A stretch of 32,000 nucleotides of DNA from Psychrobacter sp. DM4 (GTDB lineage Bacteria; Pseudomonadota; Gammaproteobacteria; Pseudomonadales; Moraxellaceae): NCBI RefSeq assembly GCF_051307035.1, contig NZ_CP195536.1, forward strand, positions 2,806,592 to 2,838,591. Reading direction: 5' to 3'. Positions within the stretch are counted from its first letter, which is position 1. Every line of letters begins with the position of its first letter. The translations under genes were made by a program, and so were the position numbers. The notes beneath the pieces were generated by a model. The model was not told where the DNA came from. It worked only from the letters and a program-made list of their open reading frames with translations, and did no database searches. Positions 7,292 through 31,125 of the stretch are shown piece by piece.

Positions 7292-8425
7292 CTAGTGCGT
7301 GTTGCCTTTTAAAGTAATGAGCCAAATCTCAGCACGCGATCCCAATCGAAACGGGATACCCCAAAAGCCATAACCTGAGGACACTACAAAGTGACCTTGG
7401 TTTATGGCTTCGTAGCCATAGCCTATTCTATTAATAGCCTTGACGATGAAGTTTGCCGGAAATACTTGTCCATTATGGGTATGCCCTGAGACCTGCAAGT
7501 CTATCGGTAGCTGACTGTGCTCCTCGATATCGCTCGGTCTATGGTCAAGTAGAACAACAGGCTCTGTCGTATCCACTTTCGCTAACAGTTCAGTGGTAGC
7601 GACGCGCTGACTCTTATGATTATCAAAACGTCCGACTAACCACAGCGGATCACCTTTGTGCTTAATCCTTAGCACCTCATCATTTAATAGTTGTACACCG
7701 GCGCGGCGTAGCGCGGCGCTAATAGGCTGCTCATGACCATACAAATCGTGATTGCCTAAAGTGGCATAAACGCCGTAAGGCACACTCGCGCATAGTTCAG
7801 CTAGATTTTTGGACATATTATAGGCATTAAACGCCTGCGTATTATCATCCATAATATCGCCTGGCATCAGCAAAATATCTGCTCGATTATCAATGAGGAG
7901 CTGATGCAACTTATCAATCGCTCTATTACCAAACAGGCGTCCAATATGTAGATCACTGGCCAGTGCCAAGCGCAAGGGATGAGATAACGGCTTATCAATC
8001 TCAAGGCTCAGCTTACGCACGACAGGCACGTAAGCGCTATAAAGCGCATAGACGAATAACCCTATGAATGTAATTAGCGCAAATACTCGAAGGCCAAAAT
8101 CTAGCTTGGCTGATTGAATTGGCGCTATGCTAGTAAATGAAGCCAGCAGCCAGTACCCGCCATACAAAATACTGATTGTTAGCGCAGTCAATATCACAAA
8201 ATGCATGATAAGCATCCACATACTCACCCAGCGATAGCTATTGGCAAAGGCTCTTTTGACGCTTAATACTAGCAGTCCATTAGTAACAGCAAATACTATG
8301 ATCCATACCGCTACTTGTAATGCCGAGGTACTCCAAGGCGCAAACCACCACTGCAAGCTGAGCGCAGCACCCGTACTAAAGAGCTGTAGGAGCATAAACA
8401 CAGTGATAAAAAACGTATAGCGCAT
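7292..8425 (-). CDS. Membrane-anchored metallophosphoesterase (calcineurin-like, COG1408/YaeI-type), paralog 1
   Basis: 377 aa. The N-terminal ~130 aa is multi-TM. Catalytic motifs follow: LASDLHIG, GDIMDD, GNHD, LLDHRP and SGHTHNGQ. Confidence 0.85.
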   Translation of the reverse strand: MRYTFFITVFMLLQLFSTGAALSLQWWFAPWSTSALQVAVWIIVFAVTNGLLVLSVKRAFANSYRWVSMWMLIMHFVILTALTISILYGGYWLLASFTSIAPIQSAKLDFGLRVFALITFIGLFVYALYSAYVPVVRKLSLEIDKPLSHPLRLALASDLHIGRLFGNRAIDKLHQLLIDNRADILLMPGDIMDDNTQAFNAYNMSKNLAELCASVPYGVYATLGNHDLYGHEQPISAALRRAGVQLLNDEVLRIKHKGDPLWLVGRFDNHKSQRVATTELLAKVDTTEPVVLLDHRPSDIEEHSQLPIDLQVSGHTHNGQVFPANFIVKAINRIGYGYEAINQGHFVVSSGYGFWGIPFRLGSRAEIWLITLKGNTH

Positions 8426-8534: not shown

Positions 8535-9608
8535 TTAGGACGTTGATTGTAACCTAATCATCCAAATCTCAGAGCGCGTACCGAATCTAAACGGCACAGG
8601 GCCGAACCCATAACCTGAGGTCACCAAAAACTGCGTATTCCCTAGCTTTTTTGCGCCATAATTGAGCGGTTCAAACCAGTTTTTTAGCATCGTTAACGGG
8701 AATATTTGCCCGCCATGCGTATGACCAGATAAATGCAAATCTACTGGCAGCACGCTGATCTCCTCCATCATTGAAGGGCGATGCTCCAAAAAGACTACAG
8801 GCTTGTCAGTATCGACTTGCTTGAGTAGCGTGTCCGCTGCTAACCTCGTCAAATCGACATCGTCTGAGCGCCCAACCAGCCACACCGCATCATTTAACAA
8901 TACACTTTCACTATCGAGCGCTGTAATGCCAGCCGCCTCCACAGCTTGAGTAATCTCTGCATCATAGCCTCGGTAGTCATGATTGCCAAGCGTAGCATAG
9001 ACGCCAAGCGGCGCTTTTAGCTGAGACAACTGCTCATGCATGTTGGTATTGTCATAAGCGATGGTCGTGTCATTCATAATGTCACCAGCGATGACGACCA
9101 CATCAGGGCTTTGCTCATCAATTAAGTTAACCATCTTTTTTATTTGCCGATTACCAAACCACCTACCCAAATGCGTATCAGAGATAAGCGCGATATCCAC
9201 AGGTTTATCTAAAGGCTTGTCAGTTGTGACCGTCATATAGCGAAGCGCTGGCGAATAAGCGTTAAATACTGCGAGCATTACTATGCTGGCAAAAGTGCCG
9301 ATAGCAAATAAACGCGTCTGCTTGGGATGTGGATTTTGTTTCAATACTTTGGCTAATATAAGCCTCGCTAGCGCTGTTATTACAATCGCATAGAACATAA
9401 ACCCTTGCAAGATGGCGACAACCAAATAGACATGAAAACGCTCGTACCAAAATTCGGTAAAACCATAAATGAGCGCCACATTATTAAACAGCAAAACAGC
9501 TATGATAAGCACAATCTTACTAGCAGCGCGCTTCGGTTTGATCATCCATAAAAGAATCATGATGGTTATGAGTGTAAGTAGCTGCGTAAAAATGATAAAA
9601 AACCACAT
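8535..9608 (-). CDS. Membrane-anchored metallophosphoesterase, paralog 2
   Basis: 357 aa with the same architecture and motifs as its neighbour: LISDTHLG, GDIMND, GNHD, FLEHRP and SGHTHGGQ. The C-terminus RSEIWMIRL compares with RAEIWLITL in paralog 1. Confidence 0.85.
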   Translation of the reverse strand: MWFFIIFTQLLTLITIMILLWMIKPKRAASKIVLIIAVLLFNNVALIYGFTEFWYERFHVYLVVAILQGFMFYAIVITALARLILAKVLKQNPHPKQTRLFAIGTFASIVMLAVFNAYSPALRYMTVTTDKPLDKPVDIALISDTHLGRWFGNRQIKKMVNLIDEQSPDVVVIAGDIMNDTTIAYDNTNMHEQLSQLKAPLGVYATLGNHDYRGYDAEITQAVEAAGITALDSESVLLNDAVWLVGRSDDVDLTRLAADTLLKQVDTDKPVVFLEHRPSMMEEISVLPVDLHLSGHTHGGQIFPLTMLKNWFEPLNYGAKKLGNTQFLVTSGYGFGPVPFRFGTRSEIWMIRLQSTS

Positions 9609-9640
9609 AACCCTATCTAACTATGTAAATATAAAGCCAG

Positions 9641-9680
9641 CTTACTGTACAGCGCCCTAAAGCTAAATAGCGCTAGTAAG
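9641..9680 (-). terminator. Possible terminator hairpin after the DUF393 gene
   Basis: Imperfect inverted repeat CTTACT(GTAC)AGCGC ... GCGCTAGTAAG, located 29 nt after the stop at 9709. The stem is bulged and only a weak T-rich tail follows. Confidence 0.3.
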
Positions 9681-9708
9681 TTTTCACTCAAACTTCATAG
9701 AAAATCCT

Positions 9709-10167
9709 CTAACGCTTATCAGGAGCGATTTTGCAAACGCCGTTAGTACAGGCTTGAGTCACTGCTTTACCATAAATGAGTGTGATTATCCAGTTTGGAA
9801 TACGGTAGCGGTTGCGCGCGACAGTAGGATAGATGAAGTCGCCAAATGGTTTGATGATAGGTAGATATAATACCGACGCCCATTTAACCCCGCCCATTTT
9901 GTATAGCAGTCTGACGGCATCCATATGTGTGTACCACTCGCCTTGATCGGTCTTAACACATAAATAGGTCATGGCATCGACGCGGCTAAACCCTGCCTCT
10001 TGTAACTCGTCTATGCCGTGCTCTACTGGCATCAGCTTAATAGCCTTTGGTCTACGAGTTTGCATACCGTGCGCCTCAGTACTACAGAGCACGCAACTAT
10101 CATCGTAGTACATGGTAATAGCTGCAACCTCTGAGATTGAGTGGTTCTCTTTGCTTGAAATGATCAT
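9709..10167 (-). CDS. Thiol-disulfide oxidoreductase DCC-family protein (DUF393)
   Basis: 152 aa. It has the characteristic N-terminal YYDDSCVLCSTEA (DxxCxxC) motif. AAGGAG lies upstream of ATG 10167. Confidence 0.75.
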   Translation of the reverse strand: MIISSKENHSISEVAAITMYYDDSCVLCSTEAHGMQTRRPKAIKLMPVEHGIDELQEAGFSRVDAMTYLCVKTDQGEWYTHMDAVRLLYKMGGVKWASVLYLPIIKPFGDFIYPTVARNRYRIPNWIITLIYGKAVTQACTNGVCKIAPDKR

Positions 10168-10264
10168 GTGATAACTCCTTAAGATCTGGTATTAATCGTC
10201 AATATTTCTATAGTATCGCTTACAGCCTAGTATCACTTTGTGTATCTTTATGACTTTTCGTCGT

Positions 10265-11074
10265 TCACATCTTTTCTAGATAGCTAGTCGTTAATATAGG
10301 TATCACAGGCTGCCGCGTCCACTCAGGTGCCTGAGCATCCAAACGTGTGGCAAGCTCTGGCAGATGATTGGTGGGTACGGCTGGGAATAGATGATGTTCG
10401 ATATGGTAGAGCAGATTAAAAGTCAACAGATTAATAAAGGGGCGACGCTCACTGCGAGCGAAAACGCCCTCATCACAGCCATGATGGACGCTCCATACTG
10501 CAAAGAAGCCGACCATAGTATTAGCAAGTATCATGACCAGCACATGATAGATTAAGACAGGATACATAGTGATAAAAGCGGCTGCCGTTACAGTGACTAT
10601 CAACATCATATCGATAGCGACAAGCAAGCGGTTACGATGACTGCCATGAGTCAGGCCAAACCACTGAATCGCTATCGAAAATAACCCACCGCCAAGTATC
10701 GCTTGGTACCAAGGCAACCGTGCCCAGTTGCCCTCGACATCGCTCTCCCCTAGCGGATCGCGATGATGATTGAGGTGAGTGTGGCGAATCGCATGCGTAC
10801 TACAGAGCATTGTGATGCTGAGCACAAATAGCATGAGCTCGGTTGCAACCTTGCCGACACCTAAAGTATGGTGATAACAGTCGTGAGCCTGCCTGAGTGC
10901 GGCGGTAAAAAAGAAAAACGTCCCTACTAGTGCCAGTAGCCAAAACCCTTGCCATGCACTCCACCATGACCATAGTAAAAACGGCAATGACAGTAATACG
11001 TTGTAAATAACTTCGGCAAGACGCAGTTGACGTAAGTCTTGCCACTCGATTTTGTTGAGCGAAGGATGACGCAT
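10265..11074 (-). CDS. Short membrane di-iron fatty-acid-desaturase-family protein
   Basis: The start is taken at ATG 11074 (AAGGAGAACACCATG; 269 aa) rather than the track start at 11188. There are three histidine boxes, HDCYHH, HLNHH and HIEHH, and the protein is hydrophobic throughout. Confidence 0.8.
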   Translation of the reverse strand: MRHPSLNKIEWQDLRQLRLAEVIYNVLLSLPFLLWSWWSAWQGFWLLALVGTFFFFTAALRQAHDCYHHTLGVGKVATELMLFVLSITMLCSTHAIRHTHLNHHRDPLGESDVEGNWARLPWYQAILGGGLFSIAIQWFGLTHGSHRNRLLVAIDMMLIVTVTAAAFITMYPVLIYHVLVMILANTMVGFFAVWSVHHGCDEGVFARSERRPFINLLTFNLLYHIEHHLFPAVPTNHLPELATRLDAQAPEWTRQPVIPILTTSYLEKM

Positions 11075-11126
11075 GGTGTTCTCCTTAATTATCCAACTAT
11101 GCAAATATCCACTTATATAATTTACT

Positions 11127-11150
11127 TTATTTCTGTCAAAACTGAAATAA
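11127..11150 (-). promoter_or_regulatory. Palindromic operator copy 1, overlapping a sigma-70-like promoter of the desaturase operon
   Basis: TTATTTCTGTCAAAACTGAAATAA, with arms matching 9 of 10 positions as an inverted repeat. On the gene strand it embeds TTGACA (11134-11139), followed after 16 nt by TATAAG (11112-11117). It lies 53 nt upstream of ATG 11074. Confidence 0.65.
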
Positions 11151-11165
11151 TAGGCTAAATAATTA

Positions 11166-11194
11166 GGCGGTTTATAGATTGCGTCCAAACCGCC
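11166..11194 (-). terminator. Possible terminator hairpin after the yfcH-like gene
   Basis: GGCGGTTT-N13-AAACCGCC, an 8-bp perfect stem about 80 nt after the stop at 11273. The loop is long and the tail is only AT-rich. Confidence 0.35.
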
Positions 11195-11227
11195 TAGCTA
11201 TATTTAAACGTTGCTACATTGCTTAGA

Positions 11228-11243
11228 AGTTTCACATGAAACA
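11228..11243. other. parS-like site (AGTTTCACATGAAACA), intergenic
   Basis: Exact match to GTTTCAYRTGAAAC, with 2 mismatches to the 16-mer parS consensus TGTTTCACGTGAAACA. Confidence 0.6.
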
Positions 11244-11272
11244 AAACCAATCCCTAAGCTTATAAACATATC

Positions 11273-12235
11273 TTACTGCTGCTCTTCTAAGGCCTGCTTG
11301 AGTATTGGCTGTTTAAACTCATAGCCGGCGTCTTGCAAGGCTTGCGGGAGTACCTTTTGTCCATCAATGAGTAACGTCGACATCTCACCGAACATGAGCT
11401 TCAGTAAAAACTCTGGCAAAGTGAAAAACGTGGGACGATGTAACCAAGCGCCAAAGGTTTTAGTAAAAGTATGATTGCTCACAGGGTTAGGCGCGGTTAG
11501 GTTATAAACGACAGCGGGCGTATCAGAACTGGTTTTTGTCGCGTTATTTTGGGTCACTTGGCTATCAATAGCACTATCAACGTGTTGCTCGATGATAAAT
11601 ATCACAGCCCCAACCCAGTCCTCACGGCTGATCCAGCTCATAACTTGCTGACCATCACCCAGTTGTCCACCAACGCCCATCTTAAATGGCATCATAAGTT
11701 TACCCAGCATACCGCCTTCAGGATGCATCACAACACCTGTGCGCACAATAGCAACGGGCACGCCGTAATCAGTCGCTTTGAGCGCTAGTTGCTCCCAGGT
11801 ATTACAGAGTTTATGCGAAAAATCGGTCTCATAGCCACTGCTCTCGGTTAACGGTTTGTCGCCTTGCGTGCCATACCAGCCAATCGCTGACCCGCTAACC
11901 ATCAATTTGGGCTTAGTGCGACTACCAGCGATGTACTCAAGTAGTGATTCAGTTGGTTTGACGCGGCTGGCAAGTAATTGTTCCTTACGCTCATCACTCC
12001 AGCGCGAGTCAGCAATCCCCGCTCCTGCTAAGTTTAAAACGACATCAAAATCGTTATCGGTCTTGGCAAGCTCATCATAAGTCATCATATTGACACGACT
12101 TGGATGCGCTTGCGTCTTGTCCCGAGTGAGCCATGTGATATGCACCTCTTTGCCGTTGCCTTGATAACGACTGATGATCTCTTGGCTAAAAGCACTACCC
12201 AAAAACCCTGATCCGCCGCTAATTAAAATATTCAT
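11273..12235 (-). CDS. TIGR01777/YfcH-type epimerase-family SDR (NAD-binding N-terminus plus DUF1731 C-terminus)
   Basis: 320 aa. It begins MNILISGGSGFLGS (Rossmann GxxGxxG). The C-terminal FFTLPEFLLKLMFGEMSTLLIDGQKVLPQALQDAGYEF is typical of DUF1731. Confidence 0.8.
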   Translation of the reverse strand: MNILISGGSGFLGSAFSQEIISRYQGNGKEVHITWLTRDKTQAHPSRVNMMTYDELAKTDNDFDVVLNLAGAGIADSRWSDERKEQLLASRVKPTESLLEYIAGSRTKPKLMVSGSAIGWYGTQGDKPLTESSGYETDFSHKLCNTWEQLALKATDYGVPVAIVRTGVVMHPEGGMLGKLMMPFKMGVGGQLGDGQQVMSWISREDWVGAVIFIIEQHVDSAIDSQVTQNNATKTSSDTPAVVYNLTAPNPVSNHTFTKTFGAWLHRPTFFTLPEFLLKLMFGEMSTLLIDGQKVLPQALQDAGYEFKQPILKQALEEQQ

Positions 12236-12266
12236 TATAGTTTCCTTATTGACGATGATTTGTGCA

Positions 12267-12770
12267 TTATCTATCTAATCTTGCTGTATAAAATGTATCA
12301 TTACCGATATCGTGTGCTTTTCTACCGCTGTTGTCAAAATGGCTTTTAGTGAGTTTAGGTAAGGTAAAGTAGCCCGCTACCGTAGAGTTAATACCACCAA
12401 ACAACCCGCCGATCAGCATAAATATGAGTAAGACTAAGATCTCCGATAAAGACCCTATACCTAGATATAACACTATAAAAGCGACATAAAGCGCTGACAC
12501 CAAAAACCCTGTCAAAAAAGTAATCTTTGTAGCATTTTTTGCTCTTTGCTTTAGCTTGATAAAAGCTAATATACAGGCTGTTATAAATGCGGGTAAAAAT
12601 CCAAACAATCCCACGTATATCAGAGGCTGAAATCCTATCTGCGCAAGGCTTGATTCTCTGAAAATAATTAAGATGCTAAGCTCTGCTATCACTCCACCAA
12701 GAGCACTACCAAGTGCTGAAAATAAAAGAACAACTTGTTGATAAGGGTAAGCCCCATTATTGTTTTTCAT
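12267..12770 (-). CDS. Hypothetical integral membrane protein (about 4 TM helices)
   Basis: 167 aa with AGGA upstream of ATG 12770. It has four long hydrophobic segments and no family signature that I recognise. It ends 32 nt upstream of the yfcH-like gene, so the two are probably one operon. Confidence 0.6.
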   Translation of the reverse strand: MKNNNGAYPYQQVVLLFSALGSALGGVIAELSILIIFRESSLAQIGFQPLIYVGLFGFLPAFITACILAFIKLKQRAKNATKITFLTGFLVSALYVAFIVLYLGIGSLSEILVLLIFMLIGGLFGGINSTVAGYFTLPKLTKSHFDNSGRKAHDIGNDTFYTARLDR

Positions 12771-12867
12771 TGTATTTATCCTAAAAGTAACTTGTGAGCT
12801 TAGTATAAATATAGCGTTGGTGATGCCGATGAACTCTGTATGAATAACTGATGGAAAATAATTTTAT

Positions 12868-12892
12868 TTATTTCTGTCCAAACAGAAAATAA
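12868..12892 (-). promoter_or_regulatory. Palindromic operator copy 2 (upstream of the membrane-protein/yfcH-like operon)
   Basis: TTATTTCTGTCCAAACAGAAAATAA. The core TTTCTGT-N4-ACAGAAA is a perfect 7-bp inverted repeat. It lies 98 nt upstream of ATG 12770. Confidence 0.6.
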
Positions 12893-12929
12893 CACTTAAA
12901 TTTTTATTGAGATCAATACGACTTGACTA

Positions 12930-13448
12930 TTAACGCAAAACTTTTTTGATACTAGCGCCCAGCTTTAGTACCTTTTTAAGGATACTCGTTGGTAGTTTGA
13001 GCATCTCTGATGACCACGTGGTTAATGTACTGACGAACTCTTGCGTATCACGAATACGGGCTTTAACTTCGCTATTCTCATGTTCAAACTCAGGACTATC
13101 CATCAGCTCGTGTAAGAATTGGACAGTAGGATCTAGCTCTCGCTTTTGCCGTTCAACAACGATAATACGTGCCAGCTCCCAAACATCGGTATTGGTCGTA
13201 AAATGATCGCGGCGATCACCCAATATCGATACCTTTTGCACCAGTCCCCAATTCTGTAGCTCCTTAATACTATTAGAAACGTTTGAGCGTGCCACGCCTA
13301 ATGTCTCTGTAATCTCTTCGGCATTCAACGGTTTGCCAATCACGTAGAGCAAAGCATGAATCTGTGACATCGTACGATTGACACCCCATTTAGAGCCCAT
13401 TTCGCCCCAATGTAAGATAAATTTTTCGGTGACAGGGTTTAATTTCAT
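12930..13448 (-). CDS. GbsR/MarR-type winged-helix transcriptional regulator (COG1510-like)
   Basis: 172 aa. The wHTH region is SQIHALLYVIGKPLNAEEITETLGVARSNVSNSIKELQNWGLVQKV, followed by a helical C-terminal domain. Its own upstream region carries operator copy 3. Confidence 0.75.
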   Translation of the reverse strand: MKLNPVTEKFILHWGEMGSKWGVNRTMSQIHALLYVIGKPLNAEEITETLGVARSNVSNSIKELQNWGLVQKVSILGDRRDHFTTNTDVWELARIIVVERQKRELDPTVQFLHELMDSPEFEHENSEVKARIRDTQEFVSTLTTWSSEMLKLPTSILKKVLKLGASIKKVLR

Positions 13449-13505
13449 GATGAATACGTACTCTTGACTTTTATGGTTTGTTTAAAGATATACTGCGCTA
13501 TTCTT

Positions 13506-13529
13506 TTATTTCTGTCAATACTGAAATAA
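13506..13529 (-). promoter_or_regulatory. Palindromic operator copy 3 (upstream of the regulator gene; implies autoregulation)
   Basis: TTATTTCTGTCAATACTGAAATAA, differing from copy 1 at one position. It embeds TTGACA on the gene strand (13513-13518) and lies 58 nt upstream of ATG 13448. Confidence 0.65.
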
Positions 13530-13590
13530 TAAATATACGTTTTATTGTTAGTGACTTTTAATGAAGGCTGCTTTTATCAAATGACTATTT

Positions 13591-14217
13591 TTAACGGACG
13601 ATTAGACCAGTAACTGCATCTCGTATTTGGCTTGGCTGCGTATAATTCAAAGTCTCCGCACTTAGATAACGTATTTTGTCATCAAAGTAGGCGCACGCTT
13701 CGGTGAGGGTTGTGGCAGGCGGCTGACCTGAAGGGTTACAACTGGTAGAGACAATAAAACCGTAAGGGTTAGTGGCAGACACTAGCCGCTGGCACAGCTG
13801 ACGAATAAGAGGATGGGCGATGACTCTAACCGCAATGCTCTGATGCTCGCCCGTTATCCAAGAAGGAATAGTGCTGGTAAGCGTTTGAGAGATAGGCAAG
13901 AGCCAAGTATGGGCTTGCTGATGTTGGACATCTATACTATCGCCAATCTGCCAGCTATGGATAATTTGTTGACGCATACCTTTATCTAAAGGGTCTAACA
14001 AGGGCATTAAACGCTCAATGCTGTTGGTTATGACAATCATGCCTTTGCGCTGCGGGCGCTGTTTGATGTCCAAGATACGCCGGACTGCTGTCTTATCATA
14101 GGCGTCACAGCCAATACCCCAAACGCTTTCGGTTGGATAAGCGAGCAGTTGTCCTTGTTTAAGCCATGTAGTAGCTTGATCGACGGATTCGGTAACATTG
14201 GCTTTGTATGATGGCAT
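13591..14217 (-). CDS. tsaC: L-threonylcarbamoyladenylate synthase, type 1 (TsaC/YrdC)
   Basis: 208 aa. It has the YrdC-domain signature LLAYPTESVWGIGCDA and ...STSCNPSGQPPA. Confidence 0.85.
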   Translation of the reverse strand: MPSYKANVTESVDQATTWLKQGQLLAYPTESVWGIGCDAYDKTAVRRILDIKQRPQRKGMIVITNSIERLMPLLDPLDKGMRQQIIHSWQIGDSIDVQHQQAHTWLLPISQTLTSTIPSWITGEHQSIAVRVIAHPLIRQLCQRLVSATNPYGFIVSTSCNPSGQPPATTLTEACAYFDDKIRYLSAETLNYTQPSQIRDAVTGLIVR

Positions 14218-24075: not shown

Positions 24076-24732
24076 TTACTTCATGAAACCATTATCAGCT
24101 AAGAACGCTTCTGTGATTTTGTTTTTTGGACTAGCAGGTGTTTTGTTCAATAAGCGCTCAAGATAACGCGCGACAATATCAACCTCAACATTGACTTTAT
24201 CTCCTACTAGCCAGTGCTTGGCAATATTAGTCACTTGTGCGGTATGCGGAATGATATTTAGCGAGACGATATTATCTTTGACTAGGTTGGTCGTTAGACT
24301 TATACCATCTAGAGTAATGGAGCCCTTGGTTGCCGTGTAATGAGCCAAATCTTCTGGAATAGCGATCTCGATGTAGATAGAACGCGCGTCTTGCTGTAAT
24401 TTTACGACTGTACCTACACCATCGACATGGCCTGAGACAATATGACCGCCAAATCGAGTCGTTGGTAACATCGCTTTTTCTAAGTTAACAATATCGCCAG
24501 TTTTTAGTCCTTCAAGAGCCGTATGAGTCATAGTTTCACGTGAAACATCAACCGAATAGTAGTTGCTACCTCTGTCTACTACCGTGAGACAAATACCGTT
24601 GGATGCTATAGAGTCTCCGAGCTTAACATCGCTAAAGTCCAGATCATCAGACTCTACCGTCAAGCGTATATCTCCACCTACCGATTCCATAGATTTTATT
24701 TTACCTATACTTTCTATAATTCCTGTAAACAT
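24076..24732 (-). CDS. ribE: Riboflavin synthase (alpha chain)
   Basis: 218 aa. It begins MFTGIIESIGKI and has two lumazine-binding repeats (GDSIASNGICLTV and KGSITLDGISLTT). Confidence 0.93.
   Translation of the reverse strand: MFTGIIESIGKIKSMESVGGDIRLTVESDDLDFSDVKLGDSIASNGICLTVVDRGSNYYSVDVSRETMTHTALEGLKTGDIVNLEKAMLPTTRFGGHIVSGHVDGVGTVVKLQQDARSIYIEIAIPEDLAHYTATKGSITLDGISLTTNLVKDNIVSLNIIPHTAQVTNIAKHWLVGDKVNVEVDIVARYLERLLNKTPASPKNKITEAFLADNGFMK
24532..24547. other. parS-like site (AGTTTCACGTGAAACA) inside ribE
   Basis: Canonical CACGTG centre, with one mismatch at the outermost base. Confidence 0.75.
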
Positions 24733-24974
24733 ATGAACCTCGTGTGTACCTGCTCAATATAGAGCAGCTATTAAATTAACATGTATTTTGATGAGTTAGA
24801 TATCTAATGCAGATAAATATAAAGTCTAAAGTTGAGTACTAGATTACGTATACATTTATTAGAGTTATCCACAATACGACTCTATCTTAGAAGATATATA
24901 AATAAACAGTAATTAAACATAAGTTATTGATTAATATCAACTTATTATGGAATGATTAAGATGATAACTTATTT

Positions 24975-24990
24975 AGTTTCATATGAAACA
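24975..24990. other. parS-like site (AGTTTCATATGAAACA), ribD-ribE spacer
   Basis: The arms are exact but the centre is CATATG. 3 mismatches to the 16-mer consensus. Confidence 0.5.
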
Positions 24991-25001
24991 AAGTTATACA
25001 C

Positions 25002-25017
25002 AGTTTCATGTGAAACT
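25002..25017. other. parS-like site (AGTTTCATGTGAAACT), ribD-ribE spacer
   Basis: The 14-mer arms are exact and the centre is CATGTG. It abuts the TTATACACA DnaA-like box. Confidence 0.5.
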
Positions 25018-25092
25018 AAACGCTGTGAAAATACAGTTATTAACCGATATTCAAACACCTTTGCTGTGGATAACTTGTTGATAATCTTTTAG

Positions 25093-26148
25093 TTAAGTAG
25101 GTCGTAAAGTTAGCTTTAAGTCAGAGCCAATTTTCTCAAAATTATGATACTCAAAACGTAACTGCTGTGCCAAGGATATGGGATTACTATCAATCATAGG
25201 ACGTGATTTTGTTCCCAAGATACAGGGTGCTTGATAAACAATGAGCTCATCTACTAGTTGCTGTTCTAAAAAGCTCGCTGCTACATTAGCGCCAGCCTCT
25301 ACCAGCACATCATAGCAGTGGTGCTCACTTACCAAATATTTCAACAACTCTATTAAGTTATCACGACGCCAGTAAACCGTATCGACACACTGACACAGCT
25401 TATAATCAGATCGCAAGTCATGTGTTAAGCGCTCGCGTCTGTCCAGTATAACGATAACAGGCGCGGGCACTTGCTCTGATGGTACGCCTAACTGATTGGA
25501 GCGTACGTTGAGCTGTGGATTATCTTTAATCACCGTCTCGCTACCTGTGATAATCGCACCGCTTAAGGCTCGCAGTTTTTGAACATCTGCGCGAGCAGCT
25601 GATCCTGTAATCCACTTCGACTCCCCGGTTGCCATTGCCGTACGACCATCAAGGCTAGTAGCAATTTTGAGACGTACAAAAGGCATTTGCGTGCGCATAG
25701 CCTTTAAGAACCCAAGATTTAGTGCTTCTGCTTGCTCAGTGAATACCCCAACTTTTACTTCGATATCTGCTTGCTCAAGTAGACTTACGCCGCGTCCAGC
25801 GACCTGCGGATTGGGATCAAGGCCAGCTATGACCACGCGCTTAATGCCAGCCTTTATTAACGCTAGCGCGCAAGGGGGCGTACGCCCAGTATGACTACAG
25901 GGCTCCAAGGTCACGTAAGCCGTAGCACCAGCAGCTTGCTCCTTGGCATCGTTGAGCGCGAACACTTCTGCATGCGGCCTACCTGCTTTGGGATGATACC
26001 CTTGACCGACTATTTGTCCTGCTTGCACGATGACGCACCCTACGGCTGGATTGGGCCTAACCGTGTACAAACCAAGTTTTGCCTGCTCGATAGCAAGCAT
26101 CATAAAGTAGCGGTCTTGGGCGTCTTGCGTATGATCTAAGGATGGCAT
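25093..26148 (-). CDS. ribD: Bifunctional riboflavin biosynthesis protein RibD (deaminase/reductase)
   Basis: The deaminase zinc motifs are HAEVFAL and PCSHTGRTPPC, followed by a C-terminal reductase domain. The start is taken at ATG 26148 (MPSLDHTQD...). The track start at 26220 is a TTG that adds a hydrophobic 24-aa leader, which is unlikely to be real. Confidence 0.9.
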   Translation of the reverse strand: MPSLDHTQDAQDRYFMMLAIEQAKLGLYTVRPNPAVGCVIVQAGQIVGQGYHPKAGRPHAEVFALNDAKEQAAGATAYVTLEPCSHTGRTPPCALALIKAGIKRVVIAGLDPNPQVAGRGVSLLEQADIEVKVGVFTEQAEALNLGFLKAMRTQMPFVRLKIATSLDGRTAMATGESKWITGSAARADVQKLRALSGAIITGSETVIKDNPQLNVRSNQLGVPSEQVPAPVIVILDRRERLTHDLRSDYKLCQCVDTVYWRRDNLIELLKYLVSEHHCYDVLVEAGANVAASFLEQQLVDELIVYQAPCILGTKSRPMIDSNPISLAQQLRFEYHNFEKIGSDLKLTLRPT

Positions 26149-26232
26149 AAGTAACAGCTTAATAGAGAATGCAAAGTTTAAATACAAAAATAATAAAAGG
26201 GAGAGATTGATACATTCCAAGTGGCTTATATG

Positions 26233-26700
26233 TTACTTACCAGATTTATCATTGGGCCGGATGTTAGCAATTTCCTGATGAAAAGCATCAATATCTTGAA
26301 AGTCACGATAGACACTAGCAAAGCGAACATAAGCGACATCATCTAAAACTTTGAGTTCGCTCATGATGATCTCACCTAAAACCTTACTGTTGATCTCGCG
26401 CTCACCCATTTGCCTAATACGTTTTTCGATACGGCTAATCATTGCCTCTTGCTCATCAAGAGTAATAGGACGCTTTTGTAGCGGCAATAAAATTGAGCGA
26501 CGCAGTTTTTCATTATCGTAAGGCACAATCTTACCGCTTGATTTGATAATACGCGGCATGACAACCTCTACCATTTCAAAGGTGGTAAAGCGCTCTTGAC
26601 AGCTATTGCAAGAACGGCGGCGACGTACTTGCGCGCCTTCTGCGGCCAAACGTGAGTCAATGACCTTCGTCTCTGAAGCGTTACAATAAGGACAATGCAT
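26233..26700 (-). CDS. nrdR: Transcriptional repressor NrdR
   Basis: 155 aa. It has the zinc ribbon [17 protein letters not shown]...[12 protein letters not shown] followed by an ATP-cone domain. The nrdR-ribD linkage is conserved. Confidence 0.93.
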
Positions 26701-26733
26701 ACTGCATCCTTTTTTTAGTGTTGCAATGTGTAC

Positions 26734-28152
26734 TCACTTACCTATACAAAAACTACCAAATATCTTGCCCAGTAGATCATCAGCATTGAATTCACCTGTG
26801 ATCTCACCTAAGCTTCGCTGAGCTTGACGCAAACTTTCAGCGACTAGTTCACCTGCTGTAAATACCGTAAGCTGTTCGTGCGCCTCGTTCAAGTAATCAG
26901 CGGTACGTCTGAGAGCATCTAGATGACGAGTACGTGCAATCAAACTATTTTCTGGTGGGTGAAATCCTACTTTATCACATAACGTTGCTATCAGATGATC
27001 GATACCGACGCCTGTTTCACATGAAACATTAATCTGTTCATAGCCTTTACTTCGCATCTCATTTTCGGTGTTAAAAGCTATGTTTTCGTTACCCTTATCG
27101 TTTAACAAATCGCTTTTGTTAGCGATAATCAGTAAGCGCTTAGCATCAGGGAGCTTGCCAAATAGCTGCTTTGCGAGCTGTAAAGGTGTGCTCTCACTCT
27201 CAAGGTCACGAGTTACATCATAGACCATAAGTAGTATGTCAGCTTGCTCAATCGCTGTGCGAGCGCGCTCAATGCCTATGCGCTCTACGGTGTCTTCGGT
27301 ATCTCTTAGACCTGCGGTATCAGTCAGATGTAGTGTCAGACCATTGAGCACAACCGTCTCATTCAACGTGTCTCTAGTGGTTCCTGCGACCTCTGTGACA
27401 ATAGCACGCTCTTGTCCCGCTAATCGATTGAGTAGACTTGATTTGCCAGCATTTGGCCGGCCTGCCAGTACGACATGAATACCATCACGTAACAACTGCC
27501 CTTGTTTTGCGGTTGCCAAAACTTGCTGTATCTGCGCCTGCACCTGTTCAAGCTTGTCTTGTATGATGCCATCGGACAAAAAATCAACGTCTTCTTCATC
27601 AGGGAAATCGATAGCCGCTTCAACATGCAAACGCAGATGAATTAGTTGCTCTAATAGCTGATTAATCTTGTGTGAAAACTCACCACTCAACGAGCGAATA
27701 GCACTACTAGCAGCCGCGGCGCTAGTTGCATCTATAGCATCAGCGATAGCTTCTGCTTGCACGAGATCGAGCTTATCATTATCAAAGGCACGATAGGAAA
27801 ACTCACCTGCTGTTGCCTGCTGCGCGCCAAGCTCAAACGCTCGTGCTAACAGTTGATTCTGTAGTATCACCCCGCCATGACCTTGTAGCTCGATGACATC
27901 TTCACCCGTAAAGGAATGCGGCGCTTTGAAATACAGCACTAAGCCCTCGTCAATAACCGTACCATCTGCTTGATAGAAACGGCAAAAGCTCGCCATACGT
28001 GGCATAAAGACGGATTTGCCAGTCAATTTACAGGCAATGCTATAAGCATGCGACCCTGATAGACGAATGACGCCTACGCCTGCGCGTCCGAGTGGCGTTG
28101 CAATAGCAGCAATGGTCGACAATCCAGAAGCAGTTGGCGGCTCAGTTGACAT
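26734..28152 (-). CDS. mnmE: tRNA uridine-5-carboxymethylaminomethyl(34) synthesis GTPase MnmE (TrmE)
   Basis: P-loop GRPNAGKSSLLN, then DTAGLR, NKSDL and a C-terminal FCIGK. The start is taken at ATG 28152 (472 aa); the track start at 28188 is a TTG. Confidence 0.93.
   Translation of the reverse strand: MSTEPPTASGLSTIAAIATPLGRAGVGVIRLSGSHAYSIACKLTGKSVFMPRMASFCRFYQADGTVIDEGLVLYFKAPHSFTGEDVIELQGHGGVILQNQLLARAFELGAQQATAGEFSYRAFDNDKLDLVQAEAIADAIDATSAAAASSAIRSLSGEFSHKINQLLEQLIHLRLHVEAAIDFPDEEDVDFLSDGIIQDKLEQVQAQIQQVLATAKQGQLLRDGIHVVLAGRPNAGKSSLLNRLAGQERAIVTEVAGTTRDTLNETVVLNGLTLHLTDTAGLRDTEDTVERIGIERARTAIEQADILLMVYDVTRDLESESTPLQLAKQLFGKLPDAKRLLIIANKSDLLNDKGNENIAFNTENEMRSKGYEQINVSCETGVGIDHLIATLCDKVGFHPPENSLIARTRHLDALRRTADYLNEAHEQLTVFTAGELVAESLRQAQRSLGEITGEFNADDLLGKIFGSFCIGK
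27013..27028. other. parS-like site (TGTTTCACATGAAACA) inside mnmE
   Basis: One mismatch (centre) to TGTTTCACGTGAAACA. Confidence 0.7.
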
Positions 28153-28291
28153 TAGCGGCGTAGCGATAGAATTCACATCTATTCTCAATAGCTAAAAACA
28201 TCATTATAGACGGCTGTAAGGAGACTGACAAAGCAAACTTCGTATCAGTATTCATTACCGATATTTTGTTAAACAGTAAAACTATAACCAT

Positions 28292-28320
28292 AAAAAAACC
28301 ACCGCTTAAGCGATGGTTTT
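28292..28320 (-). terminator. Rho-independent terminator after yidC
   Basis: The minus strand reads AAAACCATCGCTTAAGCGGTGGTTTTTTTA: a GC-rich stem (one G-U pair), a TTAA loop and a T7 run, about 25 nt after the stop at 28344. Confidence 0.75.
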
Positions 28321-28343
28321 AAGACGTTACAGAAAGTATGAGA

Positions 28344-30020
28344 TTAGCTGAGCACTTTCACTGTGCGACGCTTTTGCTCCTCTTCAACTTTTTTGTTGAC
28401 GATATACTGCTGCGTCATACTAAATAAGTTATTCACTGTCCAGTACAGTACGAGACCGGCTGGAAAGAACAACATAAATGCGGTAAAAATAATCGGCAAA
28501 AACTTCATTACTTTGGCTTGCATCGGATCAGCAGGCTGCGGGTTAAGCTGCTGCTGAATAAACATTGACGCACCCATGAGAAGAGGTAAGATAAACCAAG
28601 GATCCATCGCGGATAAATCCTGAATCCATAGTATCCACGGAGCGTGGCGCAACTCAACACTTTCGACAAGCACCCAATACAGTGCTAAGAAAATGGGCAT
28701 TTGCATGAGTATTGGCAAACATCCTGCCATTGGATTGACTTTTTCTTCTTTGTAGATGCCCATCATCTCTTGCGACATCTTCATGCGATCGTCGCCATGT
28801 TCTTCTTTGAGCGCGGCTAAGCGTGGAGCTAGCGCACGCATCTTCGCCATCGAATAGTAGCTCTTGTTTGAGAACCACATCAGGGCAATCTTAACCAGAA
28901 TAGTCAGTACGATGATTGACCAGCCCCAGTTGCCAAGTACTTTGTGAATACCATCGAGGATGGCAAATAGTATCTTAGATATTGGCCATAACAATCCATA
29001 ATCAACGGTTTGATTAAGACCTACCGCAACATCTTTGAGCTCAGACTGTACTTTTGGTCCTGAGTATAACGTTGCATTTAACGTCACTTGCTTGTTTGGT
29101 GCAACGTTGACAGGCTGACTATTAAAACCAATAAAGTAATCATTGCCTGTTTCACGTGAAAAGAACTTACCTGTAAAGTTCTCAGGTGTCCATGCTGAAA
29201 CAAAATAATGCTGAACGATGCCTACCCAGCCTTCATCACTGGTCACTGCCAACTGCTCGCTAAAGTCCTTAAATTTAAGCTTGTTGTAAGGATCATCAGG
29301 GGTACCCCAAGCACCGCCTAGATAAGTGGCCATACTTAAAGCACCTTTATCAGACATGCCTGGATCTTTACTATCATCACGTTTGAGCTGCGCAAACATC
29401 TGTCCTTGCCATGCTGCTGTAGATGCGTTTTGAATCTGATAACTGACGTCAATAGGGTATTTGTCTTGTGTAAAGGTAAAGGTCTTGGTAATCGTCACAC
29501 CATCTTTTTGATAAGTAAGTGGCACAGACAGTGTTTGTTGGCCTTCTTCCATAACATAGTTATTAGCGGTATGGCTGTAGTTAGCGCGACCTTCTGCGGT
29601 ATCAATACCATCTTGACCAATCAGACCAGACTGCGCCACATAGATACGATTGCTGTTACTCTCTAGTAATACAAAAGGCTCATCACTGTCGAGTGTCGCA
29701 TCATACTGCTTAAGCGCTGCGTACTCTATATCGCCGCCCTCAGGATTTATTTTAATGTCGTAACGGTCAGTGGTCACTGTGATAAGAGATGTATTGCTAG
29801 ACGGCGCGGCTACGATACTATTATCAGTAGGTAGTGTTTGTACAGGAATGTCCCCTGCCGCACCAGTAGTCGCTGGTATATCAGCACTTACCGATGCTGC
29901 GGGTTTAGACACAGTATCCACAGCAGGTGCATCAGCGTAATCGTCACGCCATGCTAATATCAGCAGATAAGCGGTGATCAGCATTGCAATAATGATCATC
30001 ACCCGAAGTATCTTTTGCAT
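28344..30020 (-). CDS. yidC: Membrane protein insertase YidC
   Basis: 558 aa. It has an N-terminal TM helix, a large periplasmic P1 domain, and a conserved C-terminal 5-TM core (GWSIIVLTILVKIALMW..., GCLPILMQMPIFLALYW). Confidence 0.95.
   Translation of the reverse strand: MQKILRVMIIIAMLITAYLLILAWRDDYADAPAVDTVSKPAASVSADIPATTGAAGDIPVQTLPTDNSIVAAPSSNTSLITVTTDRYDIKINPEGGDIEYAALKQYDATLDSDEPFVLLESNSNRIYVAQSGLIGQDGIDTAEGRANYSHTANNYVMEEGQQTLSVPLTYQKDGVTITKTFTFTQDKYPIDVSYQIQNASTAAWQGQMFAQLKRDDSKDPGMSDKGALSMATYLGGAWGTPDDPYNKLKFKDFSEQLAVTSDEGWVGIVQHYFVSAWTPENFTGKFFSRETGNDYFIGFNSQPVNVAPNKQVTLNATLYSGPKVQSELKDVAVGLNQTVDYGLLWPISKILFAILDGIHKVLGNWGWSIIVLTILVKIALMWFSNKSYYSMAKMRALAPRLAALKEEHGDDRMKMSQEMMGIYKEEKVNPMAGCLPILMQMPIFLALYWVLVESVELRHAPWILWIQDLSAMDPWFILPLLMGASMFIQQQLNPQPADPMQAKVMKFLPIIFTAFMLFFPAGLVLYWTVNNLFSMTQQYIVNKKVEEEQKRRTVKVLS
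29148..29163. other. Degenerate parS-like site (TGTTTCACGTGAAAAG) inside yidC
   Basis: The left half and centre are canonical, with 2 mismatches at the right end. Confidence 0.45.
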
Positions 30021-30213
30021 AAACCTTTCCTAGATTAAAAATTAGGGAGCGAAATGTTGAGAGAGATATCATGGCAGTTATAGCAAACATTTTACTATTG
30101 CTTGTCTAAAAAGTAGAAACATAAGCAGCCACTGACACAAAATGTGCACTATTTTACTAAACATTCACTATAAATGATACCAATAGCCTAAATCGCTGAC
30201 TATGTAGATACGT

Positions 30214-30294
30214 TGGGGATAACTTTGCCTATTAGAGACATTTCTATCTAAAAGTGGATCAGTTGCTGTGGATAACTATATCGACTTATCCACA
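30214..30294. other. DnaA boxes in the yidD-yidC spacer
   Basis: TGGGGATAA at 30214-30222 (one mismatch, minus-strand box), TGTGGATAA at 30267-30275 (perfect, minus) and TTATCCACA at 30286-30294 (perfect, plus). The two perfect boxes face each other 10 bp apart, 8 nt after the yidD stop. Confidence 0.6.
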
Positions 30295-30301
30295 ATAACC
30301 C

Positions 30302-30664
30302 CTAGCTCTTTATAATTAGACTATTCAAACGAGCAACATAACTTATGTCATCTCGCCAAACGCCCAAACCTTGACTCAGTAGAGGGGTAGGTAAATATCG
30401 ATAGCCGTAAGAAAAAAGCGGCAAAGGTACAAAATCGATGCCGTGTCCTCCTAACGGATGGCAACGACTTAAACGCTTTAACAATAGCCAACTACCCGAC
30501 CAAGGACCGTACCATGCCAAAGCTTGTTTGCCATACTCTGAACAAGTTGGGTAATAGCGACAGCGAGCAGGTAATATTGGACTTAGTATTTTTTGATAAA
30601 GGGTAATAACAAAATTAAATAACTTTTGAAAAATATTATTAAATCTATCTTTAATTACACTCAT
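30302..30664 (-). CDS. yidD: Membrane protein insertion efficiency factor YidD (with a C-terminal extension)
   Basis: 120 aa. The core is LYQKILSPILPARCRYYPTCSEYGKQALAWYG...RLSRCHPLGGHGIDFVP. About 35-40 extra residues follow the conserved domain. Its ATG lies 1 nt after the rnpA stop. Confidence 0.88.
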   Translation of the reverse strand: MSVIKDRFNNIFQKLFNFVITLYQKILSPILPARCRYYPTCSEYGKQALAWYGPWSGSWLLLKRLSRCHPLGGHGIDFVPLPLFSYGYRYLPTPLLSQGLGVWRDDISYVARLNSLIIKS

Positions 30665-30665
30665 T

Positions 30666-31037
30666 TTATTTTTTTTCTATCTTTTTAAGAATATTATTAA
30701 TCTCATCTATTAACTCTTTTTTGTCTAAGTCTTTTACTGATTTTTTAACAATGAATACAATATCTTTGTTTTTCAGTTTAAGAGATTTCACTCGAAACTG
30801 TTCACGTATTTGACGTTTGATTAAGTTTCGAGTAACCGCAGTAGGAACTTTTCGTTTGGTAATCGCCATACCAACTCGTGGCTGCTCATAAATATTATCA
30901 CGTACAAAAGCCATCAGATGACTTTGATGAAGCTTTTGATCAGGGGCATCAAACACCGCCCGAAAGTCATCAGGCTTTAGTAGACGCTGCGTTTTGATGA
31001 AGCGGGTAGTAGGTACTGCTAAGACAGTGTTGGACAT
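30666..31037 (-). CDS. rnpA: Ribonuclease P protein component
   Basis: The start is taken at ATG 31037 (123 aa). Contains LLKPDDFRAVF and the basic RNR-like motif TAVTRNLIKRQIRE. The track start at 31100 is a TTG lying inside the rpmH terminator. Confidence 0.88.
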   Translation of the reverse strand: MSNTVLAVPTTRFIKTQRLLKPDDFRAVFDAPDQKLHQSHLMAFVRDNIYEQPRVGMAITKRKVPTAVTRNLIKRQIREQFRVKSLKLKNKDIVFIVKKSVKDLDKKELIDEINNILKKIEKK

Positions 31038-31098
31038 AGTACAGCCTAAATAAGAAGCTAATAGTGCTATCAAGAATGATAGTACAAAATATAGAGAC

Positions 31099-31125
31099 AA
31101 AAAAAGCGCCTATAGGGGCGCTTTT
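31099..31125 (-). terminator. Hairpin plus T-run between rpmH and rnpA (terminator/attenuator)
   Basis: The minus strand reads AAAGCGCCcctataGGCGCTTTTTTT: an 8-bp stem with a T-run, about 90 nt after the rpmH stop. Confidence 0.7.

Follow-up and report, generated by a model that had tools for sequence, protein, structure and literature searches.

The DNA analyzed here, a 32,000-nucleotide stretch of Psychrobacter sp. DM4 (contig NZ_CP195536.1, positions 2,806,592 to 2,838,591; hereafter the window), contains a compact cluster of five genes, all on the minus strand and spanning 9709-13448. The first of these encodes a small GbsR-type winged-helix regulator, and three copies of one palindrome are distributed through the cluster. 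It is very likely that the regulator is a GbsR-type repressor of three adjacent units and that it acts through these three copies of ATTTCTGT-N4-ACAGAAAT. The units are the regulator gene itself, a pair encoding a membrane protein and a yfcH-type short-chain dehydrogenase/reductase (SDR), and a pair encoding a membrane desaturase and a DCC1-like protein. The palindrome is conserved among orthologous loci, is linked exclusively to the regulator gene, and is akin to the operator of CydE, a characterized repressor of the same family.

The Three Putative Operators

The unit common to all copies is a 20-bp palindrome with two 8-bp arms and a 4-bp spacer (8-4-8), from which each window copy departs by a single mismatch. 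The autoregulatory operator, O-reg, lies at 13508-13527 (plus strand, ATTTCTGTCAATACTGAAAT) and contains a TTGACA -35 hexamer on the gene strand at 13513-13518. O-mem, at 12870-12889 (plus strand, ATTTCTGTCCAAACAGAAAA), is located between the stop codon of the regulator gene and the membrane-protein/SDR operon. The third copy, O-des, at 11129-11148 (plus strand, ATTTCTGTCAAAACTGAAAT), precedes the desaturase gene and carries a gene-strand TTGACA at 11134-11139, followed after 16 nucleotides (nt) by TATAAG at 11112-11117.

An earlier, sequence-only reading of the window had described these repeats as the motif TTATTTCTGTCAA[A/T]ACTGAAATAA, present as TTATTTCTGTCAAAACTGAAATAA at 11127-11150 and as TTATTTCTGTCAATACTGAAATAA at 13506-13529, with a variant, TTATTTCTGTCCAAACAGAAAATAA, at 12868-12892. 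All three placements proved exact, as did the single base said to separate the first two copies, and the motif gave no match in 100 shuffles. The same reading held that the motif occurs nowhere else in the window and that each copy lies 53 to 98 nt upstream of a minus-strand unit. A looser inverted-repeat scan allowing up to three mismatches returned the three sites and added only one weak three-mismatch match at 23077, and the measured distances from motif to start codon are 53 nt for the desaturase (ATG at 11074), 98 nt for the membrane protein (12770), and 58 nt for the regulator (13448). The TTGACA hexamers that it placed inside the first and third copies, and the TTGACA-N16-TATAAG that it read at the first, are also present. 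The part that had to be revised is the register of the motif. The shared palindrome stands, but the 8-4-8 core replaces the 25-mer, and the one-base insertion supposed for the middle copy was dropped because related loci show the 8-4-8 register, in which this copy aligns without it.

Conservation in Orthologous and Metagenomic Loci

Orthologous loci were obtained by a regulator profile search of contigs from one genome per species, in which at least 597 stretches encode a relative. Eighty loci, totaling 1.02 Mb and designated by L numbers, were compared, and sites were counted at up to two mismatches. Their regulators are 56-97% identical to that of the window: 88-97% in Psychrobacter (69% in one strain), about 72% in Moraxella, 58-67% in Neisseriaceae/Eikenella/Kingella, and 56-63% in Burkholderiales. 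The regulator of Psychrobacter sp. DM8 is 97% identical, and the set also includes Chromobacterium, Nitrosomonadales, Crenothrix, and Thiodiazotropha.

These loci contain 156 sites, against 0-2 per shuffle (mean 0.25). A site is found upstream of the regulator gene in 73 of the 80 loci, and its position is nearly fixed, with 48 of the 77 such sites beginning 44-45 nt before the ATG. A further site lies no more than 1100 bp past the regulator stop codon in 69 loci. Each of the other 10 sites lies farther down its locus, in most cases immediately before a cluster gene, and no site occurs outside the cluster region in the flanks of any of the 80 loci. A site equivalent to O-des precedes the orthologous desaturase in L001 and in L003-L005. 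Phylogenetic comparison had been proposed as a check on the idea that one regulator controls its own gene and two neighboring units through three operators, and the conserved sites before and after the regulator gene, with none elsewhere, strongly support that idea.

An independent scan was carried out in the opposite direction, by searching metagenome contigs for the perfect palindrome. Of the 120 stretches returned, 77 have a homolog of the regulator, 42-72% identical, as the immediate neighbor of the site. Of the remaining stretches, several carry cluster genes or are cut at a contig end, and the other matches, inside open reading frames or in low-GC DNA, look like chance.

The Regulator and Its Relatives

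The regulator (12930-13448, minus strand) is a 172-residue MarR-family winged-helix protein of the GbsR type that contains no cysteine. It matches MarR_2 (PF12802; E 6e-11) with 42.8 bits against a cut-off of 27, and its homologs carry the NCBI name GbsR/MarR. The match to the NCBIfam CudC equivalog is weak, at 40.9 bits and far under the 218-bit cut-off. By sequence profile, the best match is Mj223 (1KU9; E 2e-15), which is also ranked first by Foldseek for the AlphaFold model (E 1.7e-8). In this model (pLDDT 89.8), the predicted winged-helix core (helix-helix-helix-helix-strand-strand) is followed by long C-terminal helices. The Bacillus regulators GbsR, OpuAR, and OpcR, which are concerned with choline and glycine betaine and for which Mj223 serves as the template, have the same MarR winged helix and repress neighboring genes. 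However, the similarity is remote, and no osmoprotectant transporter or betaine-synthesis genes are linked to the regulator here. An operator of the TTTCTGT type was not reported for GbsR, OpuAR, or OpcR in the literature searched.

The CydE/CioR-type regulators provide the more informative comparison. Homologs linked to cyd genes were found by a search of plasmid and chromid records: RSOE_05770 of Ralstonia solanacearum OE1-1 (42% identical), followed by cydAB-type genes, and RLTA1_29870 of Rhizobium leguminosarum TA1 (47% identical), followed by cydDC and cydA. The identity of these proteins to the window regulator extends over the full length, and the N-terminal sequence FxLHxGEMGxxWGxNRT is held in common. 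On the same scale, the 42-47% of the cyd-linked regulators compares with 56-97% for orthologs of the window's own branch and 42-53% for distant members with the same operator. Upstream of the cyd-linked genes lies an exact TTTCAGAAATTTCTGAAA in Rhizobium and a degenerate copy, TTTCAGAAATTCCTAAAA, in Ralstonia. The Rhizobium sequence is identical to the site footprinted for CydE of Alishewanella sp. WH16-1, which has been shown to repress and whose operator is TTTCAGA-N4-TCTGAAA (PMC6096048). In Chromobacterium violaceum, CioR directly represses its own operon, cioRAB (PMC11837568).

CydE/CioR and the window regulator each have a palindrome just upstream of their own gene, and the operators share the frame TTTC-N10-GAAA, in which arms of 7-8 bp flank a spacer of 4 bp. 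They differ in the inner triplet, which is TGT/ACA here (TTTCTGT-N4-ACAGAAA) and AGA/TCT in CydE. The recognition helix differs as well, reading A-R-S-N-V-S-N/T here and S-R-S-N-V-S-M/I in the CydE type. Of 153 regulators with TGT/ACA operators, 152 have a helix of the form xARSN[VIT]S[NT][SG], and this extends to members that share as little as 42-50% identity with the window protein. The form xSRSNVS[MI][SG] is that of the two regulators for which AGA/TCT is the sole operator. In Pseudoalteromonas, a CydE-like regulator has a related helix, ISRGNVSMG, and an upstream region that fits both operator patterns. Paired with CydE/CioR, the present branch forms a natural case of operator-specificity divergence, in which the frame is kept while the inner triplet and two positions of the recognition helix differ.

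The targets are also distinct. CydE/CioR proteins control cytochrome bd operons, whereas the genes behind the operator here encode SDR, DoxX_3, DUF2269, DCC1, and desaturase proteins, with several operators per cluster. A tblastn search with CydA and CydB gave no match in the window, the 80 genome loci, or the 120 metagenome loci. Membership in CydE was rejected because no cyd genes are linked and the operator differs; the window regulator is taken to represent a sister branch of CydE/CioR and not CydE itself.

A looser resemblance is to the MhqR/YodB-type MarR/DUF24 regulons for quinone stress in Firmicutes, in which a small repressor governs DoxX-like membrane proteins and oxidoreductases and YodB is thiol-sensing. 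The regulator subfamily differs, however, and the likeness is by analogy only and not by sequence kinship. Because the window regulator has no cysteine, thiol-based sensing by it is excluded.

Proposed Mechanism of Repression

It is proposed that a dimer of the regulator binds each 20-bp palindrome and in this way holds its own gene, the membrane-protein/yfcH-SDR pair, and the desaturase/DCC1 pair under common control. At O-reg and O-des, which contain the -35 TTGACA, the bound repressor would exclude RNA polymerase. At O-mem, it may block a weaker overlapping promoter or, alternatively, act as a roadblock to read-through from the regulator gene. Release of the repressor by a signal would then switch on the three units jointly, and the regulator would be subject to negative feedback. 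Repression is favored over activation because the characterized GbsR-type proteins all repress (GbsR, OpuAR, and OpcR; CydE, PMC6096048; CioR, PMC11837568) and because the autoregulatory site overlaps the -35.

The architecture of the autoregulatory copy is consistent with this arrangement. Its spacer is nearly always [A/C]TTG, and spacer and right arm together make up TTGACA; the spacers of the target copies vary freely and are T-rich. In the window, a candidate -10 of the regulator, CAGTAT (13490-13495, minus strand), is located 17 nt after the embedded TTGACA and about 40 nt before the ATG, and CAAGAT holds this position at the same spacing in other Psychrobacter loci. Most loci from Betaproteobacteria and Neisseriaceae (L013-L080, e.g., L041:6956-7003) have TAnAnT about 17 nt past TTGACA, and the regulator ATG follows only 6-8 nt later, for which reason the regulator mRNA is predicted to be leaderless in most of them; the Psychrobacter regulator instead has a leader of about 40 nt. 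In the Betaproteobacterial and Neisseriaceae loci, the regulator gene is closed by a GC hairpin with a T7-G run, and the target operator is placed between this hairpin and the ribosome-binding site. Only 16-25 nt separate the end of the operator from the start codon, which means that a promoter dedicated to the target genes must overlap the operator.

Several smaller elements accompany the sites. The T7-G run that follows the GC hairpin stands at a fixed distance (-15 to -8) before the target operators in L013-L080; it forms the regulator gene's terminator, with a TTG that may double as a -35. A third, half-site-like element, tACnGAA, follows many sites, at +1 to +8 after the target operators of the same loci. 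Achromobacter has a nested double palindrome, GTTTCTGTTATTTCTGTCTTGACAGAAATAACAGAAAC (L062:6945-6985, L070:5950-5990, and L078:6945-6985), which suggests binding by two dimers. In a Psychrobacter metagenome-assembled genome (MAG; L008:4770-4840), a 14-nt unit, CTGTCATAACTGAA, is repeated about four times in tandem between the operator and the regulator start.

A number of points weigh against the repressor model. At the middle operon, the best sigma-70-like match of a consensus scan, the uncertain TCGGCA-16-TATACT (12802-12829, minus strand), is about 40 nt downstream of O-mem, which is not an occlusion geometry; it is kept in L001 as CCAACGCTATATT[T/C]ATACTAA. At O-des, the TATAAG -10 is absent from L001, the closest relative. 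Promoter-like matches in 9500-13700 are no commoner than in shuffles, and the consensus promoter and terminator scan of this interval missed the operator-embedded promoters. The correlation between helix and operator draws on few counterexamples, namely the two AGA/TCT-only regulators and the one from Pseudoalteromonas that fits both patterns, and the metagenome loci were chosen for the operator. Site counts cover the cluster loci with their flanks, and the regulon may extend beyond the cluster. Binding, repression, promoter positions, and signal are all inferred, and the respiratory or redox link discussed below derives entirely from paralogy with CydE/CioR and from domain content. The promoter-occlusion geometry put forward in the sequence-only reading fares unevenly: it is best supported at O-reg, where the TTGACA within the operator is near-invariant in the family, and at O-des includes a TATAAG that L001 does not conserve. 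Occlusion at O-mem, where the match lies downstream, is uncertain.

Alternative Explanations

The regulator could instead activate one or both target operons, or have a dual role there, chiefly at the middle site. O-mem is centered about 45-60 nt upstream of TCGGCA-16-TATACT, a placement more often associated with an activator site or a roadblock than with occlusion. This is nevertheless unlikely given the uniform record of repression among characterized GbsR-type proteins, the overlap of the autoregulatory site with the -35 throughout the family, and the operators of Betaproteobacteria and Neisseriaceae, which end too close to the start codon for a promoter that does not overlap them.

Repression by the cluster's own regulator would also be mistaken if the palindromes were bound by some other factor, such as a global regulator, with the MarR-type gene merely a target. 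The CTGT...ACAG cores look like LexA boxes. Against this, the motif is tied to the regulator gene in 73/80 genome loci and 77/120 metagenome matches and is found nowhere else in the 1.02 Mb of flanks; the footprint of the sister regulator CydE falls on a site with the same frame; and changes in operator type are matched by changes in the recognition helix. Binding by another factor is thus quite improbable. The LexA SOS box was rejected on spacing, as CTGT and ACAG are separated by N4 in all sites and by N8 in the LexA box of Gamma- and Betaproteobacteria. True SOS boxes (TACTGT-N8-ACAGTA) do occur separately in Variovorax (L039, L040, L048, and L054) and in an unclassified Proteobacteria MAG (L075), about 55-70 nt upstream of the autoregulatory operator and facing a divergent gene of about 365 codons; they are unrelated to the operator.

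Another thought is that the inverted repeats function as RNA hairpins, in the role of a terminator, attenuator, or stability element. A stem of 8 bp with a 4-nt loop could form, and the middle site follows the end of a gene. The pattern of substitution speaks against pairing: 94 distinct sites show 106 departures from the consensus pairs of the arms, of which 1 is compensated and 87 break a pair, and the arm sequence is kept over a wide phylogenetic distance. The sites are not followed by a U-tract, transcription is predicted to start downstream of the autoregulatory copy, and an Rfam scan of the whole window gave zero family matches, including no FMN riboswitch. Because the arms are conserved as sequence rather than as pairing, and because Rfam gave no match, the RNA hairpin was rejected, and the repeats are best read as protein-binding DNA. 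A role as hairpins would be very surprising. Finally, a chance or mobile repeat of the REP or MITE kind, without regulatory role, has nothing beyond the repetition itself in its favor and is negligible, given that zero chance matches are expected, that the three copies in 32 kb all lie in 5' regions of one cluster, and that their position is kept across proteobacterial classes while the flanks diverge.

Probable Target Genes of the Regulator

The first target pair begins with a gene (12267-12770, minus strand; ATG at 12770) for a hydrophobic, probably multi-pass membrane protein of 167 residues that has no family assignment. This protein, designated c3, occurs only in Moraxellaceae among the loci compared. 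It was considered as a divergent DoxX_3 because membrane protein and SDR would then mirror DoxX_3-SDR fusions, but the candidate was rejected at an hhalign probability of 0.09. The second gene of the pair (11273-12235, minus strand) encodes an NAD-dependent SDR of the yfcH/TIGR01777 type (E 3e-87), made up of an Epimerase domain and a C-terminal DUF1731 domain, with PDB matches to human SDR39U1 (4B4O) and to 3OH8 (E ~1e-36). The only functional paper found on a yfcH homolog concerns ThyD of Anabaena, which is tied to cell division and high-light acclimation. After the SDR stop codon lies an inverted repeat, GGCGGTTT...AAACCGCC (11167-11195, minus strand), noticed by reading, which is a possible terminator between the two target units; it is absent from the output of the terminator scan.

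The second target pair begins with a gene (10265-11074, minus strand) for a membrane di-iron enzyme of the FA_desaturase family, 269 residues in length (E 2e-20), with the histidine boxes HDCYHH, HLNHH, and HIEHH. Its start is likely the ATG at 11074, which is preceded by AAGGAG. NCBIfam gives no equivalog for this protein, and a PDB sequence search gives no relative. The last gene of the cluster (9709-10167, minus strand) encodes a DCC1-like (DUF393) protein, a putative thiol-disulfide oxidoreductase (PF04134, E 1e-17), for which a PDB sequence search was likewise without a match. The identities assigned to the five genes in the sequence-only reading agree with these family matches, the membrane protein remaining without a family.

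Across taxa, the recurrent genes behind the operator are those for DCC1-like/DUF393 proteins, SDRs, and DUF2269. The SDRs are either of the yfcH/TIGR01777 type or NAD_binding_10/Epimerase proteins that are fused to, or followed by, a DoxX_3 membrane domain. Variable members include the short FA_desaturase-family enzyme (in Psychrobacter, Moraxella lacunata, some Burkholderiales, and metagenome loci), small membrane proteins, and a GST. Desaturase homologs lie within the cluster in L002-L007, L010, L011, L073, L087, and L119. The small membrane proteins are lineage-specific: c3 in Moraxellaceae, c57, first seen in Neisseriaceae, and c93, first seen in Pandoraea and Trinickia and with tblastn matches in Burkholderia-group loci. 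Distant regulators with the same operator (42-50% identical) adjoin DUF4166, saccharopine-dehydrogenase-like NADP-binding proteins, yfcH, and DUF2269. The window cluster has yfcH, the c3 protein, the desaturase, and DCC1 and is without DoxX_3 and DUF2269; in L002, from another Psychrobacter, all six are present.

Possible Signal and Significance

The kinship with cytochrome bd repressors, together with a target set of membrane-tied Rossmann-fold oxidoreductases, a DCC1-like protein, and a membrane di-iron enzyme, points weakly to a signal at the membrane. The best guess is respiratory stress, redox stress, or stress from a lipophilic compound, rather than cold or osmolarity. A role in cold- or osmo-responsive remodeling of membrane lipids, which had been suggested from the window alone, found no support. 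The sole point in its favor is the desaturase, a variable member of the cluster; the recurrent targets are SDR/DoxX_3, DUF2269, and DCC1, the nearest characterized relatives control cytochrome bd, and genera that are not known for specializing in the cold, among them Burkholderia and Neisseria, commonly carry the system.

A broader and more speculative proposal is that the cluster is the Psychrobacter form of a widespread, unrecognized membrane stress module made up of an SDR, with or without DoxX_3, DUF2269, DCC1/DUF393, DUF4166, and the short desaturase. Its sensor, a CydE/CioR paralog, would share the signal class of those repressors, be it the condition of the quinone pool or respiratory chain or a lipophilic redox-active toxin, and its enzymes would repair or modify membrane quinone or lipid. 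This is a tentative idea that is more probably wrong than right, but if true it would give several orphan families a first physiological context together. Independently of the signal, an operator and cognate regulator are now defined for mostly uncharacterized families (DUF393/DCC1, DUF2269, DoxX_3, yfcH/DUF1731, DUF4166, and a short desaturase-like enzyme). Many Beta- and Gammaproteobacteria carry the gene set, among them the Burkholderia cepacia complex, Achromobacter, Moraxella, and Neisseriaceae, and the function of these families becomes directly testable through one small repressor.

A 2018 survey of the GbsR family groups its members by gene neighborhood into GbsR, OpuAR, OpcR/YvaV, CydE, "others," and "unknown," and the present gene set is not described in it. 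A literature search did not find the operator sequence, nor anything linking GbsR-type regulators to these DUFs or placing DoxX together with MarR and DCC, and work since 2019 on CydE, CioR, and GbsR likewise yielded no account of this branch. The view that this is not a described system therefore holds within the literature searched, although its sister subfamily CydE/CioR has been described. The branch itself appears to be new, as do its operator and the conserved set of orphan-family targets; the mode of regulation is classical, and the family was known before.

Other Features of the Window and Related Loci

Two variations on the cluster were seen elsewhere. In the Burkholderia cepacia complex (L041, L046, L047, L049, L052, and L061, at about 7618-7735), the c93-type small membrane gene has decayed to a remnant of 18-39 codons or to an in-frame fusion with the N-terminus of the SDR-DoxX_3 protein, and in related loci the gene sits first behind the operator (tblastn matches in L028, L056, L058, and L079). 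At L105:3731-5865 and L195:802-2268, a group of distant regulators (47-49% identical) with the same operator has genes for a Pyridox_ox_2 flavoprotein and a transporter of the Na+/sulfate-symporter family nearby. CydE has been reported as sulfate-responsive.

Just downstream of the DCC1 gene, the window contains two tandem paralogous genes for membrane-anchored calcineurin-like metallophosphoesterases (7292-8425 and 8535-9608). No operator precedes them. They hold the same position in most Psychrobacter loci, in one or two copies (two in L001 and L007). The interval 24076-31100, in the right part of the window, holds housekeeping genes, identified by eye from the translations of open reading frames, for riboflavin synthase, ribD, nrdR, mnmE, yidC, and rnpA. 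Among the compared loci, L014 (CAUUHT010000006.1) is binned as Candidatus Nanosyncoccus (Patescibacteria); the same cluster is present on it, with a 69%-identical regulator, as is the DNA-uptake sequence of Neisseria, GCCGTCTGAA, and the contig is probably misbinned Neisseriaceae.

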